A stretch of 52,149 bases of DNA, taken from positions 1 through 52,149 of IMG/VR virus record IMGVR_UViG_3300037756_000051; one strand, 5' to 3'. The number at the start of each line of letters is the position of its first letter. Positions within the stretch are counted from its first letter, which is position 1. This DNA is from a virus. Taxonomy: Duplodnaviria; Caudoviricetes. Shown piece by piece: positions 9,468 through 15,517 of this stretch. Position numbers and translations under genes: made by a program. The notes below the pieces were generated by a model. It searched no databases and had not been told where the DNA came from. It worked only from the letters and a program-made list of their open reading frames with translations.

Positions 9468-9614
9468 ATGGATACGACAATCACAATCCGCGTCGATAAG
9501 GCATGGCTTGCCAAGATCGACAAGTGGCGCGAAAAGCAGCCAGTACCTCCGGGCCGGTCTGAACTTATCCGGCTTGCCGTCGAGCGTTTCATTTCGAAGG
9601 AGCGCGCGAAATGA
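9468..9614 (+). CDS. ribbon-helix-helix (CopG/Arc-like) regulator
   Basis: MDTTITIRVDKAWLAKIDKWREKQPVPPGRSELIRLAVERF: alternating beta strand plus (S/G)RSE.IR helix. Confidence 0.8.
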   Translation: MDTTITIRVDKAWLAKIDKWREKQPVPPGRSELIRLAVERFISKERAK

Positions 9615-10078
9615 GTCCAAGGAAGTACCCAGAGGGCGCGCATGTGTATGTGTTTGGCGCATCTGAGCCGCCCTACAAAATTGGGTACACGAAAAGTCTC
9701 GCGAGCCGGATAGCGCAACTGCGCAGGGGGAAAAGCAAGAATTCTCCTGGTGGAGCATGGAGCGGCGAATATAAGATTCTGCGCCTTTGCCCACCTGAGA
9801 TATTACCGAAAGATTTAGAGCGGCATCTGCACAGTTGCTATCATCCGTACCGCTGCAACGGAACGAGACTTTTCAGGGCGAGAGACGGTTTAGAGATCCA
9901 TAACTGGTCATTAAACGAATGGTTCGATCTGCCGCTCGAAGCACTTGAAGCCACTATAGATTTTGTGATTGAGCATTTCGGTGACGGATACTCCGCCAAT
10001 TTCTGGACTGGACAGAAGGTGTCATCCCTGTTGTTTTCGTATCACGTTGCGTCGTGCGCATATGATTATGCTGCCTGA
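9611..10078 (+). CDS. GIY-YIG / T5orf172-like nuclease-domain protein
   Basis: VYVF...YKIGYT...R..QL...LERHLH...EWF pattern. Confidence 0.75.
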   Translation: MSPRKYPEGAHVYVFGASEPPYKIGYTKSLASRIAQLRRGKSKNSPGGAWSGEYKILRLCPPEILPKDLERHLHSCYHPYRCNGTRLFRARDGLEIHNWSLNEWFDLPLEALEATIDFVIEHFGDGYSANFWTGQKVSSLLFSYHVASCAYDYAA

Positions 10079-10100: not shown

Positions 10101-10358
10101 ATGAGCGACTGGCAGCCAATCGAAACGCTCCCGCGCAGCGTCATGGAAATTCCCCGTGACGGCATCCTCTTGTGGGGACCAAGCGAAGGGAAGCATTACC
10201 TGGATCGCTTCAAAGCCAATTCCGATTGGTGGCGTCACGCGCTACAGATTGACCCGGAAGAGATGATCTATCCGGTGTTTACGCATTGGATGCCGTTGCC
10301 TGACCCGCCCGCGCCAAGCTCAAGGAGCTTAACCGATGAGCGACCGTCCAGCATTTGA
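10101..10358 (+). CDS. DUF551-like protein
   Basis: MSDWQPIET...THWMPLPDPP. Confidence 0.75.
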   Translation: MSDWQPIETLPRSVMEIPRDGILLWGPSEGKHYLDRFKANSDWWRHALQIDPEEMIYPVFTHWMPLPDPPAPSSRSLTDERPSSI

Positions 10359-10503
10359 AGAGCTAAAAGCTACAGCACTTGATGCGATGAAGCAGTTAGA
10401 CGACGAAGACCGCTTGGAGATCATGGGTCAGTTCTGCAAGTTTTGCGGAAGCGACAACCCTAACTGCCAATGTTGGAACGAAGAAATGGTTCGGCGAAAA
10501 TGA
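10336..10503 (+). CDS. hypothetical Cys-rich protein (55 aa) coupled to TnpB
   Basis: AAGGAG RBS; FCKFCGSDNPNCQCWNE; its stop TGA overlaps ATG 10500. Confidence 0.6.
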   Translation: MSDRPAFEELKATALDAMKQLDDEDRLEIMGQFCKFCGSDNPNCQCWNEEMVRRK

Positions 10504-11918
10504 CGAGTTTCAGCCCAACTTCAAGCGAAAAGGTCTTCTATCCATACTGGAACGCGCAATGCGCGGAGAACGCCTCACGGTTGTTGTCTCATGCCGGAAC
10601 CGACTGGCTCGCTTCGGCTTCGACCTCATTGAATGGGCGATCAAGCGCACAGGTGGGCAGGTCGTGGTGCTCAATAAAATCGATACCAGCCCCTCAGCCG
10701 AACTCGTCGCTGACCTCATGGCTATCATCACAGTTTTCTCTTTCCGGCTGCACGGCCTCCGCAGCTACAGGCGTGCGCTCAAGAGCGATCTTGCTGAGGC
10801 CGACGCGGCAACAGATCCGGATTTTGCGCAGCTGGGCGGGTAGCTATCGGCGCGCCTATAATCTGACCGTGGACTTGCTTGAAAGGGCCTATTTGGAGAA
10901 AGGCAAGTCCGGCAGCTACATGCGGGACCGTAAGGTCTGGACAGCGGCTATTCGCGAGCAAATGCCGTGGTTCAAGGAGATTCCGGCCCACACCATTTAT
11001 GGTGCGATGCGCGACGCGGAGATAGATTACAAGAACACCGTTGCCAAGCGGGCAAAGGGCGAAGCTTGCAATTTGCCGCGCTGCAGGGCCAAATTCCAGC
11101 GCTCGTTTTTCGTCCTTGGGAACGCCATTACGCCGCGAGGTATCTATCCGACGAAGCTCGGACCGATCCGTTCGCGCGAGGCGATGCCTGAGAAACCAAA
11201 GGATTCCCGCATCGTTTTCGAAGCGGGGAAGTGGTGGGTGCGCATCCCTGAGGAAGTTCAGACATCGATTGCCGAGAACCAAGGCCGTGTCTGCGCGATC
11301 GATCCAGGTGTGCGTACCTTCGCCACTATTTTTGCGCCTGAACTCATCGCCAAAGTGCAGTTCGGCGGATTCGCGCGCATCGTAAGACTAGCGTATTGTC
11401 TTGACGATTTAATTTCACGTCGTGCCAAGACGAAGAATGGCGCCCGGAGGAGGCGCATGCAGGTGGCGATCCAGCGGGCTCGCCTGCGTATCCGCCATCT
11501 TGTTCAGGATCTCCATTATCAGACGATCGGATGGCTGTTTCGTCGGTTCGGCACGGTTATCGTGCCGAACAGCGATTTCACTTCCGCTGTCTGCCGTGCC
11601 ACGCGCAAGATCAGGAACAAGACCGTCAGGTCTCTGCTGAACTTCGCGTTTGCGCGTTTCCGGGATCGCCTCAAGCATAAGGCGGAACTTTACGGCAAGA
11701 GCGTTGTCACCGTTTGCGAGTCGTACACCTCAAAGACGAACAACATCACCGGAGAGATTTCTGCAAACCTCGGCGGCCGGAAGTACATCTGGCATCAAGG
11801 CAAGAAGATCGATCGCGATATAAACGGCGCTTTGGGGATTTTCCTCAAGGCTTTGTTGGATAGACCATCGGCAGAACCGCCGGTGCAACGTCAATCAGCG
11901 CTTGTTAGCGCCTGTTAA
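10500..11918 (+). CDS. tnpB: IS607-family TnpB of pro-Fanzor type (RNA-guided RuvC nuclease)
   Basis: AIDPGVRTF (RuvC-I), Pro at the canonical RuvC-II Glu position (VIVPN), relocated Glu in CESYTSKT, IDRDINGA (RuvC-III); no CxxC zinc finger. Confidence 0.85.
   Translation: MTSFSPTSSEKVFYPYWNAQCAENASRLLSHAGTDWLASASTSLNGRSSAQVGRSWCSIKSIPAPQPNSSLTSWLSSQFSLSGCTASAATGVRSRAILLRPTRQQIRILRSWAGSYRRAYNLTVDLLERAYLEKGKSGSYMRDRKVWTAAIREQMPWFKEIPAHTIYGAMRDAEIDYKNTVAKRAKGEACNLPRCRAKFQRSFFVLGNAITPRGIYPTKLGPIRSREAMPEKPKDSRIVFEAGKWWVRIPEEVQTSIAENQGRVCAIDPGVRTFATIFAPELIAKVQFGGFARIVRLAYCLDDLISRRAKTKNGARRRRMQVAIQRARLRIRHLVQDLHYQTIGWLFRRFGTVIVPNSDFTSAVCRATRKIRNKTVRSLLNFAFARFRDRLKHKAELYGKSVVTVCESYTSKTNNITGEISANLGGRKYIWHQGKKIDRDINGALGIFLKALLDRPSAEPPVQRQSALVSAC
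10517..10843 (+). pseudogene. tnpA: IS607 serine-recombinase TnpA remnant (C-terminal half only)
   Basis: NFKRKGLLSILER...VVV..RNRLARFGFDLI...ELVADLMAII.VFS.RLHGLRSY; lacks the N-terminal HTH and catalytic YARVS; DRL changed to NRL. Confidence 0.85.
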
Positions 11919-11934
11919 CGGAGAACTACTCTGG
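11850..11934 (+). ncRNA. probable omega/reRNA scaffold and IS607 right end
   Basis: GTTAGCGCCTGTTAAC hairpin overlapping the tnpB stop, ending in GG at 11933-11934 (IS607 ends use GG). Boundary inferred. Confidence 0.45.
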
Positions 11935-11954
11935 CATCATCCATCAACCCGTTC

Positions 11955-12251
11955 ATGACGGCACCGTTTACGCCTGTCGGCACGGTAAGTCGTTCCGTGA
12001 ATACAGGATCGCAAAGGGTTGCGCTCAGTCGCGCGCATGATCAGACCTGCATCATCACAGCGCCAACAGGCAATAGCGGGCCTGTCTTCATCAAGTTCGG
12101 TGACAGCACGGTAGAGGCTGCAGCCACGGATTTCCCGATCCTGCCTGGCACGATCCAGACCTTCCACGTGCTTGAGCAATGGACGCATGTTGCTGCCATC
12201 ATGGCAAGCGGCACAGGCACCATCTACGCCAGCGTCGGGGACGGCGTCTGA
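11955..12251 (+). CDS. putative virion decoration / fibre-base protein (paralog 1)
   Basis: F.P...SQRVAL...FGD.TV...THVA motif shared with 23942 and the N-terminus of 46877. Confidence 0.55.
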   Translation: MTAPFTPVGTVSRSVNTGSQRVALSRAHDQTCIITAPTGNSGPVFIKFGDSTVEAAATDFPILPGTIQTFHVLEQWTHVAAIMASGTGTIYASVGDGV

Positions 12252-12724
12252 TGGCACTACGCGCAGTCAGCATACCCTCACAGGCCAGTGATGTCACGGC
12301 TTCTGCGGTCGTAGGCGATAATGAACTTCTCCGTGGTGACGGAGGCGCAAGAGGCGTTCAGGGCAGCGGCAAGACTCTTTCCGACGAAGCCACGGTCAAC
12401 ACGACTGACGCCACCGTAACCACGCTGGCAACTATAACCGTTCCCACGGATGACCGTATTCTCGTTACAGCGCATGTCAAGGCAACACGCACGGGCGGCG
12501 TAGCGGGCACTGCAGGCGACGCGGCAGGCTACATCATCCACGCCATGCTGCAGAACCTTGCCGGCACCGCTGAGATCATCGCCACGCAAGTCGCAGCTCT
12601 GACGGCAGAAGACGTAAGCGCCTATGCCTGCGTAATCGACGTGACGGGTGCGACCGCACGCATTCGCGTTACAGGCGTTGCTGACACCAATATCACGTGG
12701 GTCGCCGTTTACGAGACATATTAG
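12251..12724 (+). CDS. putative fibre / structural protein
   Basis: DN.L.R.DG...GVQGSG segment resembling the fibre at 46877; Thr/Ala/Val-rich beta C-terminus. Confidence 0.5.
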   Translation: MALRAVSIPSQASDVTASAVVGDNELLRGDGGARGVQGSGKTLSDEATVNTTDATVTTLATITVPTDDRILVTAHVKATRTGGVAGTAGDAAGYIIHAMLQNLAGTAEIIATQVAALTAEDVSAYACVIDVTGATARIRVTGVADTNITWVAVYETY

Positions 12725-12728
12725 GCAA

Positions 12729-13010
12729 ATGATCTTGCGTGATCATCACTGGCCATCAAACAAGCAGCACAGCTTCATCGAAGGACGTTGCACTGGTTGC
12801 GGCACGGTACCACGTGATGACGGCAGGTTCTACCCATGCGGCAGTCACCCGATGACTTTCAACACCCCGCAAGGCCAGATCACTGGCGGCATTACCGAGG
12901 ATGGAGGCTTTGCTGTTCTCGAATGGCCAGACACCCTCACCGAGGCGACAGCTCAATCTGCGCTTGATGAGTTCATGGCCGAACATATCGACGAGATCAA
13001 CGAAATATAA
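12729..13010 (+). CDS. hypothetical protein
   Basis: ORF from ATG 12729. Confidence 0.45.
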   Translation: MILRDHHWPSNKQHSFIEGRCTGCGTVPRDDGRFYPCGSHPMTFNTPQGQITGGITEDGGFAVLEWPDTLTEATAQSALDEFMAEHIDEINEI

Positions 13011-13323: not shown

Positions 13324-13947
13324 ATGAACCGCAAGCCGAGCACCGCCAAAAAGGCGGACTCCACGGCTGCGAAGCGTAAGACAGCTCGCAAGCCGAAAGC
13401 AAAGACAAAGGCAGCGAGAAAGAAAGTTGTTCTGGCCACCGCAGAAGGTATTGAGCCGGAGACGGTAAGCGAACCGGTAGGCAGGCCGACCGATTACAGG
13501 CCAGAATATATCGACGATGCGCGCGAGATGGCGGAAGCCGGTTTCACCGATCAGCAAATGATGGATTTCTTCGGCTGCTCGAAACCGACGTTTTATAGAT
13601 GGCAGAAGCGCTTTCCTGAATTTCGTAACGCCATAAAGGTGGCCAAGGAAGGCCCCGATGACGAAATGGAGCGCTCGCTCTTTCATCGTGGCAAGGGTTA
13701 CGAGTGGACAGAGCAGCAGGCTTTCAAACTCAAAGAAGTTTCTTGGGAAGACGGCAATAAGGTTGAGCGCGAGCGCGTGGAAGTGGTTGACGTTCGCCGC
13801 GTTGTGCCGCCTGACAGCACCGCCGCAATCTTCTGGCTGAAGAACCGCCGCGGATGGAAAGACAAGAGCGAGGTTGACCACGGCATCACGGATGCCCTGG
13901 CTGCCCTCTTAGGTCAGATCGATGGCGACGGCGCAAGCATCGTCTGA
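13324..13947 (+). CDS. terminase small subunit
   Basis: GRPTDYRPEY, HTH, PPDSTAAIFWLKNR..WKDK; directly upstream of TerL; Lys/Ala-rich N-terminus. Confidence 0.85.
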   Translation: MNRKPSTAKKADSTAAKRKTARKPKAKTKAARKKVVLATAEGIEPETVSEPVGRPTDYRPEYIDDAREMAEAGFTDQQMMDFFGCSKPTFYRWQKRFPEFRNAIKVAKEGPDDEMERSLFHRGKGYEWTEQQAFKLKEVSWEDGNKVERERVEVVDVRRVVPPDSTAAIFWLKNRRGWKDKSEVDHGITDALAALLGQIDGDGASIV

Positions 13948-15517
13948 GGCGATCGAGCAGCTTAAGCGCAATCTCGCAGACCGCAATTGGCGCTTATGCA
14001 ATCTCTACTGGATCACCGATCGCGATGGCAAACGGGTCAGATTCTCTCCAAACTGGATGCAACAGCGTCTCATGGAGGACTGGCATTATCGCAACATCAT
14101 CCTGAAGTCGCGGCAGACCGGGTGCACGACCTTCATCCAATTGCTGTTTCTGGATTTGGTTCTGTTCAATTCCAACATGCGTTGCGGCACCATTGCGCAG
14201 GACAGGGACACGGCCAAGGCGATCTTCGCCGACAAGATCAAGTATCCCTTCGAGAACCTGCCGGAGGCTCTGCAATCGGTCAGGCCGCCGGAGAACGACA
14301 ACCTTTTCGAGCTGAAGCTCAACAACAACTCGTCTATCCGCGTCGGCACATCGATGCGCGGCGGCACGCTGCAATATCTGCACGTGAGCGAATTCGGCAA
14401 GGTCTGCGCCAGGTTTCCCGAAAAAGCGCGCGAGATTGTCACTGGCGCGCTTAACACGGTCAAGGCCGGCCAGTTCGTGTTCATCGAAAGCACGGCGGAA
14501 GGGCAGGACGGACATTTCTACAAGATGACGGAGAAGGCTCGGGCGCATCAGCGCATGGGGTCTGAGCTTTCTGTCATCGATTACAAGTTCCATTTTTTCG
14601 GATGGTTCGAAGACCCGAATTGCTGGATTGAGCCGACCGGAATTCCGATCACGGCGGAAGCGCAGAAGTATTTTGACCATCTCGAAAACGAGCATGGCAT
14701 CACGCTGGATGCCGGTCAAAAGGCCTGGTGGACCGTCACCAAGGAAACGCAGGATGACGATATGAGCCGGGAATATCCGGCTCACCCTGACGAGGCGTTT
14801 GCGGCGGCAGTTGACGGCTCATATTATGGTCGGCACATGGCTGCGGTCGAGAAGCGCGGCGGCGTTGGCAAGTTTGAAGCAGAACCTGGCTGGTCGGTCC
14901 AGACATTCCACGACATCGGCGTTCACGACTATCATTCGATCTGGTTTGCCCAGTTCTTGCCGGGCGAGATCCGGCATCTGCACTATTACCAGAACTGTGG
15001 CGAAGGCATGCCGCATTATGCCGAGTACTGCGAAGAGCAATATGACAAGCACGGCTGGCTTCGGAATGACGACAGCTTCGACTGGCTCCCGCATGACGGC
15101 AAGGTCAAGGAATGGGGCACCGGCAAGACGCGAACGGAGCAGGCCATTGAGAAGAACATGCGGCCGCGCATTCCGACCGCGCTTAGCCTTGCTGACGGTC
15201 GCAACGCTGTCCGCGCAATCCTGAAATTCTCGACATTCGATCAGGAAGGCTGTGCTGAAGGCATCGCGCATCTGAAGAACTACAAGAAAAAATGGAATCC
15301 GACAACTGGCGCTTGGATGAACGAACATCTCCACAGCGAAGCCTCACATGGAGCCGACGCGGAGAGAACGCTGGCTTGCGCACACCGTGAGGTTTTCGCT
15401 CCGGTTGTCGATCCCGAAGAAGAAGAGCGTCAGAAGAACATCAAGGCCCAGCAGGCCCGCGTTCGCGAAGCCCAGAAATCACGCGGCCACCGCCGCGGCA
15501 CAAGGCGAGCAGCATAA
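13922..15517 (+). CDS. terminase large subunit
   Basis: ILKSRQTGCTT Walker A, LHVSEFGK Walker B, IESTAEG, DIG..D nuclease, SHGADA.R. Confidence 0.95.
   Translation: MATAQASSEAIEQLKRNLADRNWRLCNLYWITDRDGKRVRFSPNWMQQRLMEDWHYRNIILKSRQTGCTTFIQLLFLDLVLFNSNMRCGTIAQDRDTAKAIFADKIKYPFENLPEALQSVRPPENDNLFELKLNNNSSIRVGTSMRGGTLQYLHVSEFGKVCARFPEKAREIVTGALNTVKAGQFVFIESTAEGQDGHFYKMTEKARAHQRMGSELSVIDYKFHFFGWFEDPNCWIEPTGIPITAEAQKYFDHLENEHGITLDAGQKAWWTVTKETQDDDMSREYPAHPDEAFAAAVDGSYYGRHMAAVEKRGGVGKFEAEPGWSVQTFHDIGVHDYHSIWFAQFLPGEIRHLHYYQNCGEGMPHYAEYCEEQYDKHGWLRNDDSFDWLPHDGKVKEWGTGKTRTEQAIEKNMRPRIPTALSLADGRNAVRAILKFSTFDQEGCAEGIAHLKNYKKKWNPTTGAWMNEHLHSEASHGADAERTLACAHREVFAPVVDPEEEERQKNIKAQQARVREAQKSRGHRRGTRRAA

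Follow-up and report, generated by a model that had tools for sequence, protein, structure and literature searches.

Introduction

What keeps the nuclease gene of an insertion sequence in a phage genome after its transposase has been lost, and where does the stretch of protein ahead of the nuclease core come from? Both questions are raised by a locus in the IMG/VR virus record IMGVR_UViG_3300037756_000051, a linear sequence of 52,149 bases with a CheckV completeness of 100%, which we analyzed over its full length (hereafter the window). It carries, as a single copy, an element derived from the IS607 family, comprising the remains of a transposase gene (tnpA) and a long gene for TnpB, a protein type studied together with the Fanzor proteins as an ancestor of Cas12 and as a compact genome editor. 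An earlier reading of the sequence alone, referred to here as the original prediction, had described a phage-borne pro-Fanzor whose N-terminus is overprinted on a dead tnpA. Our analysis leads to a related picture: with a probability of roughly 0.7, positions 10516–11934 represent an immobile IS607 stump with a structurally complete TnpB and right end, acting as an RNA-guided nuclease that is kept in the phage by a homing-type drive. For this reading we document the anatomy and the junctions of the element, the family-wide overprinting, the fold and the conservation of the catalytic Asp–Glu–Asp triad, from which we infer the remainder. The more interesting result is the overprinting of a Fanzor2-type domain on tnpA across the family.

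A complete TnpB core on a truncated IS607 element

The TnpB frame is open from 10464 and offers in-frame ATGs at 10470 and 10500 (Table 1). Its 482-residue product matched the NCBIfam family guided_TnpB (NF040570) over residues 108–457 with 114.5 bits, above the cut-off of 100, as well as the Pfam families Cas12f1-like_TNB and HTH_OrfB_IS605. The RuvC-I motif DPG is formed by residues 278–280 (nucleotides 11301–11309), and alignment to the canonical TnpB-type chain 9yyg places Pro366 (nucleotide 11565) at the canonical RuvC-II Glu site, with the shifted Glu being Glu417 in ESYTSKT (nucleotide 11718), 136 residues after the DPG, and the RuvC-III Asp being Asp450 in RDIN (nucleotide 11817). All residues of the split RuvC Asp–Glu–Asp triad (D278, the shifted E417 and D450) are present, and residues 417–450 contain no Cys and hence no zinc-finger Cys. 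The original prediction had listed the DPG, the Pro, the shifted Glu and the missing zinc-finger Cys and had assigned them to an IS607-derived TnpB, an assignment that is supported. Among the 120 best homologues, the DPG was found in 114, Pro at the old Glu site and the shifted Glu in 119 each, and the RuvC-III Asp in 118. The TNB segment is free of Cys in 108 of them, and its length is retained at 30–35 residues, mostly 33, where fully aligned. Judged by this conservation, the TnpB-type split RuvC triad is maintained, unlike in nuclease-dead relatives. When the window protein alone was used for an exact-peptide scan, viral contigs returned nothing, and the scan of genome contigs returned one locus only.

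Ahead of the core, the IS607 transposase profile (NF033518, 187 positions) matched with 79 bits over 10517–10774. The match is limited to profile positions 101–186, and the helix-turn-helix (HTH), the catalytic Ser and the left end have therefore been lost, as had been proposed. The tblastx matches to relatives begin at 10517–10520, next to the start of the profile match, and a contig from another sediment run (X2) contains 10480–10515 and then continues into other phage DNA. Since this stretch recurs in a different context, it is phage DNA; together with the match starts this sets the left junction at 10516/10517, with both ATGs in phage DNA. The element does not begin at 10336, where it had first been placed. 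The accompanying proposal, an N-terminus encoded in another frame across what is left of tnpA and a start codon in phage DNA, is supported. With its tnpA dead and its left end gone, the element is predicted to be unable to move, which agrees with the original view of it as immobilized.

The 108 remnant codons contain no stop in the TnpB frame and 4 in the third frame; among 5000 synonymous shuffles of the remnant, which average 3.3 stops, only 0.22% do equally well. The open frame upstream of the core, with ATG 10500 in an ATGA overlap, was found as described and extends over 108 codons, with the amendment that a second in-frame ATG is present at 10470. The codon AAC at 10598 replaces, in the tnpA frame, an Asp that is invariant in 10/10 intact relatives by Asn, and is silent in the TnpB frame (GGA, Gly), as had also been noted. 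The claim that selection now acts on the overprinted frame is not supported: the extension is family-wide, and the remnant shows no decay of its tnpA frame, with 1 of 25 conserved columns changed as against 0–6 in the intact controls. On the same numbers, relaxed selection on the remnant was rejected as unproven. The nearest DNA relatives share ~55–60% protein identity, so that silent sites are saturated.

At the right end, a contig from a third sediment run (X3) agrees with the window starting at 11932 and has other sequence upstream of that point, placing the right junction at 11931–11934, and a related phage contig (L022) begins at 11947 with 87–94% identity across two aligned pieces. The element terminates in GG (11933–11934), which is the rule for IS607 right ends according to a review (PMC13565253). 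A Logan contig of run X1 with a length of 2589 nucleotides covers 10311–12899, including both junctions, without any difference.

Table 1 Features of the locus in window coordinates
Feature	Position	Strand	Remarks
55-residue phage open reading frame (CxxC...CxC)	10336..10503	+	stop TGA 10501–10503 overlaps ATG 10500–10502 of the TnpB frame (ATGA)
Long TnpB reading frame	10470..11918	+	482 residues from ATG 10470, 472 residues from ATG 10500
Left junction, phage DNA / truncated IS607 element	10516..10517	.	
tnpA remnant, last 108 codons in the tnpA frame	10517..10843	+	HTH and catalytic Ser gone
Fanzor2-type N-terminal domain of TnpB (by model)	10518..10787	+	residues 17–106; PYW 25–27, SW 65–66; +1 frame of tnpA
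TnpB core (WED, REC, RuvC, Cys-less TNB)	10788..11918	+	
Predicted 3' module of the guide (omega/re) RNA	11859..11934	+	two hairpins and a closing helix that pairs GAUAG with the right-end tip
Predicted guide segment (right-end flank)	11935..11954	+	extends into the start codon (ATG) of the following gene; placed by reference to the right end
Downstream phage gene, 98 residues	11955..12251	+	

Overprinting of the TnpB N-terminus on tnpA

The extension in the window corresponds to the last ~86 residues of a family extension of ~160–190 residues. The DNA loci of the family were fetched with patterns of the TnpB core and not via the extension, so that the extension did not bias their choice. Wherever tnpA is whole (10/10 loci), the TnpB frame coincides with its +1 frame, which stays open for 146–217 codons up to the tnpA stop and continues into TnpB. 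Synonymous shuffles of these ten loci (2000 per locus) were without stops in 0–0.45% of the cases, with means of 3.8–9.1 stops, and their +2 frame contains 6–22 stops. Complete elements encode the domain, behind a leader predicted to be disordered, in the +1 frame over almost the whole of tnpA. At the protein level, 45 of the 120 best homologues have at least 60 residues ahead of the core, nearly all of them with P-Y/F-W followed later by S-W. The remaining short homologues may be gene calls in which the caller kept tnpA and began TnpB later, in which case 45 is an undercount.

The domain also persists where tnpA does not. Two loci (L003 and L002) retain it in an open TnpB frame with the tnpA frame stop-ridden and unrecognizable, and in a phage contig (L015) tnpA is decayed and the TnpB frame starts just ahead of P-F-W. 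Likewise, Vibrio phage 184E37.1 (L040, MW824371.1, 111158–112639) carries a tnpA pseudogene, and its annotated 493-residue 'transposase' starts just ahead of P-F-W. These tnpA-less copies constitute stronger evidence for the domain than the open frames. Microcoleus phage My-WqHQDG (L041, OR578706.1, 154597–156282) encodes a 561-residue 'hypothetical protein' with DPG, shifted Glu and a full CxxC...CxxC, whose frame sits over a complete tnpA and has the same overprinted N-terminus. A profile built from the N-terminal domain alone retrieved 1164 cluster representatives with a threshold of E ≤ 1e-3 and 444 with one of E ≤ 1e-10, and all ten matches sampled contain the TnpB TNB domain. These comparisons indicate that the overprinted extension characterizes the TnpB family as a whole and did not originate in the present phage copy.

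In 5/11 loci, the open frame has its first ATG 13 nucleotides past the start of the TnpA HTH motif TLRKY; the distance is within 22 nucleotides in 7/11, and the ATG is farther downstream in the other 4. We also observed that the Leu-Arg-Lys codons of this motif often read AAGGA(A/G), at a distance of a few bases from the downstream ATG of the overprinted frame (e.g. L013:5763-5778, L017:5826-5847, L018:5799-5814), the Arg being AGA or AGG in 8/11 loci, which resembles a ribosome-binding site embedded in tnpA. Besides these loci, a 545-residue NCBI protein (P0013) begins with the MerR-type HTH of TnpA and switches to the frame of the TnpB extension shortly ahead of the TnpA catalytic-Ser motif, representing either a frameshifted tnpA or a natural HTH–TnpB fusion. 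GenBank annotates the embedded tnpA neither in OR578706.1 nor, as a pseudogene, in MW824371.1.

Our literature search on IS607 overprinting and on an overlap of TnpB or Fanzor2 with tnpA covered openly accessible text, including that of PMC3627910, PMC10691335 and both the bioRxiv and the NAR version of Yoon et al., and found no description of a TnpB frame over a whole tnpA. These sources speak of tnpA and tnpB solely as neighboring or partly overlapping genes. The overlap of the Fanzor2 extension with tnpA, which the original prediction had presented as known, was likewise not found in these sources; what they do report is a structured N-terminal domain.

Predicted fold of the N-terminal domain

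An AlphaFold2 model of the 482-residue protein, calculated with the 120 homologues as input, resulted in a mean predicted local distance difference test (pLDDT) score of 87.7 and a predicted template modelling score of 0.83, with residues 1–18 below a pLDDT of 50. Residues 21–100 are ordered (block pLDDT 67–94) and adopt two helices, a strand and a further helix. In the structural comparison by VIA-align, mimivirus Fanzor2 (9b0l_P) aligned with a Z score of 24.4 and a root-mean-square deviation of 4.1 over 417 residues (model 23–467, chain 53–518). The alignments of the other 49 listed entries start at model residues 92–104, so that among the entries listed only 9b0l covers the extension. The remainder matches the canonical TnpB fold (residues 99–467; Z 24.0 to 8exa and 23.1 to 8h1j). 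Foldseek likewise returned this Fanzor2, ApmFz2, as the best solved relative (E 1.4e-21), as did the sequence profile, where the mimivirus TnpB-like protein L79 (Fanzor2) reached E 2e-37 vs 1.5e-11 for ISDra2 TnpB. The likeness to Fanzor2 is stronger than originally claimed: among the entries listed, the extension finds a counterpart in the mimivirus Fanzor2 structure alone.

For Fanzor2 itself, a 2024 report describes residues 1–53 as a disordered nuclear localization signal (NLS) and residues 53–130 as an N-terminal domain absent from other TnpB structures, part of which completes the RuvC fold and contacts the guide RNA and another part of which forms a basic thumb on the DNA (PMC11832414). 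Disordered N-terminal regions of Fanzor2 are also mentioned in two further papers (PMC10530073, PMC10432273). Based on the model, the N-terminal domain of the window TnpB is predicted to be of this Fanzor2 type (RuvC-R plus thumb in ApmFz2). ApmFz2 (L79, PDB 9b0l) shares with the window protein the DPG, the shifted Glu, the IS607 ancestry and a structured domain before the WED strand, at an identity of 19–23%. It differs in residing in a giant virus of amoebae and not in a tailed-phage genome, in having a CxxC...CxxC zinc finger where the window protein has no Cys, and in its basic thumb and N-terminal NLS, whereas the stretch before the core in the window protein is not basic and the leader is lost. 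The window protein thus has neither the setting in a eukaryotic or eukaryote-virus genome nor the N-terminal NLS that mark Fanzor2. With canonical TnpBs of the IS200/IS605 and IS607 families (ISDra2 8exa/8h1j, ISFba1 8iaz), it shares the WED–REC–RuvC–TNB core (Z 19.9–24.0 over model residues 99–467) and the expectation of a right-end guide RNA, and solo tnpB copies without tnpA are common among them. Unlike the window protein, canonical TnpBs have no N-terminal domain, the Glu at the canonical RuvC-II site and a zinc finger.

To place the truncation relative to the fold, a model of a full-length relative (L005, 527 residues) is informative: pLDDT values stay below 50 over its residues 1–77, and order sets in with the domain at about residue 80. 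What the window element lost by truncation is therefore the leader alone, and the structured protein is whole.

Relation to pro-Fanzors

The published search pattern for pro-Fanzors requires E-x6-CxxC...CxxC with the Glu 120–160 residues after the DPG (Yoon et al. 2023, PMC10711439). The window protein has the DPG, a C-terminally shifted Glu together with a non-acidic canonical site (P366), and an IS607 serine-recombinase tnpA, present as a remnant here and whole in relatives. It lacks the CxxC...CxxC six residues after the shifted Glu. As they have no zinc-finger Cys, the members of the Cys-less clade cannot match the published pattern. DPG, shifted Glu and serine-recombinase partner are common to the window protein and the pro-Fanzors, which are mostly cyanobacterial IS607 TnpBs (PMC10711439), and the named relatives include proteins from Geitlerinema and Spirulina. 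A Cys-bearing member of the pro-Fanzors, that of Microcoleus phage My-WqHQDG, likewise has its N-terminus overprinted. In the part of the pro-Fanzor account that we could consult, neither an N-terminal domain nor an overlap with tnpA was found.

A FastTree phylogeny was calculated for 107 proteins bearing the N-terminal domain; it contains no Fanzor and no outgroup and hence does not give the direction of change. One branch with a Shimodaira–Hasegawa-like support of 98 separates 72 Cys-less and 1 unclassified protein from 24 Cys-bearing, 9 unclassified and 1 Cys-less protein. The window TnpB falls into a fully supported Cys-less group of 19 rows, beside P0002 and P0004. The tree suggests that the Cys-less clade is the sister side to the Cys-bearing forms, and the TnpB can be assigned to a large clade with a probable kinship to pro-Fanzors and Fanzor2. 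The original prediction had taken the RuvC arrangement as the mark of TnpBs ancestral to Fanzors, a view that does not fit the sister position of the clade and its departure from the pro-Fanzor pattern.

Right end and predicted guide RNA

The last 200 nucleotides up to 11934 fold with a z score of −3.48, and 0/200 shuffles folded as well. Between the conserved GAU and the tip, hairpins form in 13/13 aligned relatives (mean z −2.4), as judged from single-sequence folds, which are weaker evidence than a consensus structure. A tip motif ending in G is common to the same 13/13, and in many relatives the GAU motif additionally pairs with the tip in a closing helix whose paired letters differ between loci. 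With up to 3 mismatches allowed, the predicted guide segment has no second site in the window; its occurrence in related phages, suggested as a check at the outset, was not observed, as the 20-nucleotide segment has no exact match in viral contigs.

Four other loci (L004:1357-1382, L008:1726-1751, L009:1960-1985 and L012:3214-3239) share an identical TnpB 3' end and right end and then diverge. L008, L009 and L012 hold only the C-terminal 63–133 TnpB codons (L020 is the same contig as L012), and the four loci represent either 5'-truncated or solo right-end copies that stem from a single mobile element, one lying in a viral contig of 50 kb. Because their right ends are identical and the sequences diverge after them, such elements are mobile and multi-copy.

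Proposed origin and maintenance of the element

In the reading that we favor, a deletion or recombination event would have taken the left end and the first ~100 codons of tnpA, cutting just ahead of the domain and fusing it, in frame, with start codons that lie near the 3' terminus of the 55-residue phage gene. The protein would be made from ATG 10500 by termination–reinitiation, or from ATG 10470, and would bind an RNA ending at 11934 plus ~16–20 nucleotides of flank. The nuclease may then cut related phage genomes that have the same site without the insert, whereby the stump would be kept or copied by recombination in a homing-type drive, transposition presumably being no longer possible.

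Several observations weigh against this account. There is no clear Shine–Dalgarno sequence ahead of either ATG, and GTG 10767 is a possible start for a core-only protein. The tnpA remnant, at 1 changed column in 25, is as well preserved as intact genes, and the truncation may thus be so recent that the open frame is uninformative on use in the phage. Loss of the four zinc-finger Cys could impair cleavage. The empty-site allele of X3 is one contig of 301 nucleotides at a depth of 3.9, the original left flank was lost with the truncation, and the junction-spanning contig of X1 may share one sample, or the same reads, with the IMG/VR record. At the right end, RNAalifold applied to a MAFFT alignment yielded no pairs and no consensus structure, and Rfam returned no match with E ≤ 1 in 10300–12400 and none at the gathering score in the whole window. 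For the overprinting, the amino-acid identity in the +1 frame is 0.31 vs 0.28 in the unused frame and 0.22 in the shuffle null, and in the leader half the overprinted frame reaches 0.22 vs a null of 0.21; the family leader is open but not conserved. Pairwise identity is a weak test of overprinting, and we therefore put the weight on the absence of stops and on the tnpA-less copies.

The same good preservation would fit a plainer history, in which a freshly truncated insertion sequence is decaying, the ATGs are accidental, and TnpB is either not made or made as a core from an internal start, with no role in the phage. Little time would have elapsed, with the tnpA frame of the remnant still open; only 16 codons of phage DNA needed to be open by chance, and the lack of an evident Shine–Dalgarno sequence points the same way. 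Decay in phages does occur, as other phage contigs (L008, L009, L012/L020) keep mere 3' fragments of TnpB, and the IMG gene call (P0001, 364 residues) begins far inside the gene. That start, however, would delete the nearly invariant first strand (L109, P111, Q115). Moreover, the cut lies 8 codons ahead of the first conserved motif of the domain and removed exactly the part predicted to be disordered in the full-length relative, near-identical cut sites are found in L015 and Vibrio phage 184E37.1, again with an open TnpB frame and a broken tnpA, and the catalytic residues and the right end are intact. We therefore regard simple decay as unlikely.

If the missing zinc-finger Cys meant that the protein no longer cuts, it could have been domesticated as a regulator or binder. 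The absence of TNB Cys in 108/120 homologues and the overlap of the predicted guide with the start region of the next gene are compatible with such a role, and a preprint figure legend calls the zinc-finger-less Cas12k and TldR catalytically dead. These two share with the window protein the loss of the zinc finger and the immobile, host-kept copy; they are nuclease-dead, whereas the window protein combines a conserved RuvC triad with a full-length TNB segment. The triad is kept in 118–119/120 homologues, which would be unexpected for dead relatives, and the TNB segment (30–35 residues, mostly 33) is modelled with high confidence. In addition, most relatives reside in complete, multi-copy mobile elements, and the natural target adjoins the element's own end, where no transposon-associated motif is expected, which together make a non-cutting regulator very improbable. 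Still less credence is due to an assembly artefact, by which 10516 would join reads of two genomes and the real element would be complete elsewhere. The metagenome does hold several variants, with loose ends at 10340 in X1 and X2 and contig breaks at 11932 and 11947. Both the X1 Logan contig and the IMG/VR record, however, span the two junctions, albeit possibly from the same reads and hence not independently, and truncated copies of the same shape occur in a cultured phage genome.

With the immobile, drive-maintained nuclease as the preferred explanation, a wider proposal can be made, which we hold tentatively and with slightly less than even confidence. The N-terminal domain of Fanzor2 and its leader, later the NLS, may have arisen in prokaryotic IS607 elements by extension of tnpB into the +1 frame of tnpA, with ~500–600 nucleotides shared, and phages may repeatedly keep truncated copies with exactly the structured part as immobile nucleases against rival phages. 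As described above, a Fanzor2-type N-terminal domain is widespread in prokaryotic and phage TnpBs and persists once the transposase is gone, and the Cys-less clade bearing it escapes the published pro-Fanzor pattern. If confirmed, this would amount to a tangible example of overprinting giving rise to a protein domain, and would account for gene calls at these loci that show either tnpA or a long TnpB. For the phage, the locus would offer an example of an RNA-guided nuclease that is immobile and may have a part in inter-phage competition.

Phage context

Nearly all long open reading frames of the window lie on the + strand. The large terminase (13922–15517) is of the tailed-phage type, with 38–42% identity to those of the listed GenBank phage records, mostly from proteobacterial hosts. 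DNA near-identical to the window was not found among GenBank phages, and the best run containing the window DNA is a sediment metagenome; no RNA run appears among the sequencing runs listed for it. The 55-residue open reading frame at 10336–10503 has AAGGAG 8 nucleotides ahead of its own ATG; it matched no Pfam family and no relative in viral contigs. A promoter and terminator scan gave nothing exceeding shuffles. Between 8372 and 8838 the window contains many short overlapping open reading frames on both strands with no obvious gene and no Rfam match.

Just upstream of the element, the gene at 9611–10078 encodes a T5orf172/MUG113 domain and the gene at 10101–10358 a DUF551 domain. In run X2, the start of the DUF551 gene comes after the 3' end of a gene resembling the 55-residue frame, a gene order unlike that of the window. 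Contigs of runs X1 and X2 depart from the window sequence right after 10340, into two different sequences, and the stretch from the start of the 55-residue frame onward is therefore variable among phages, including those of the likely source sample.

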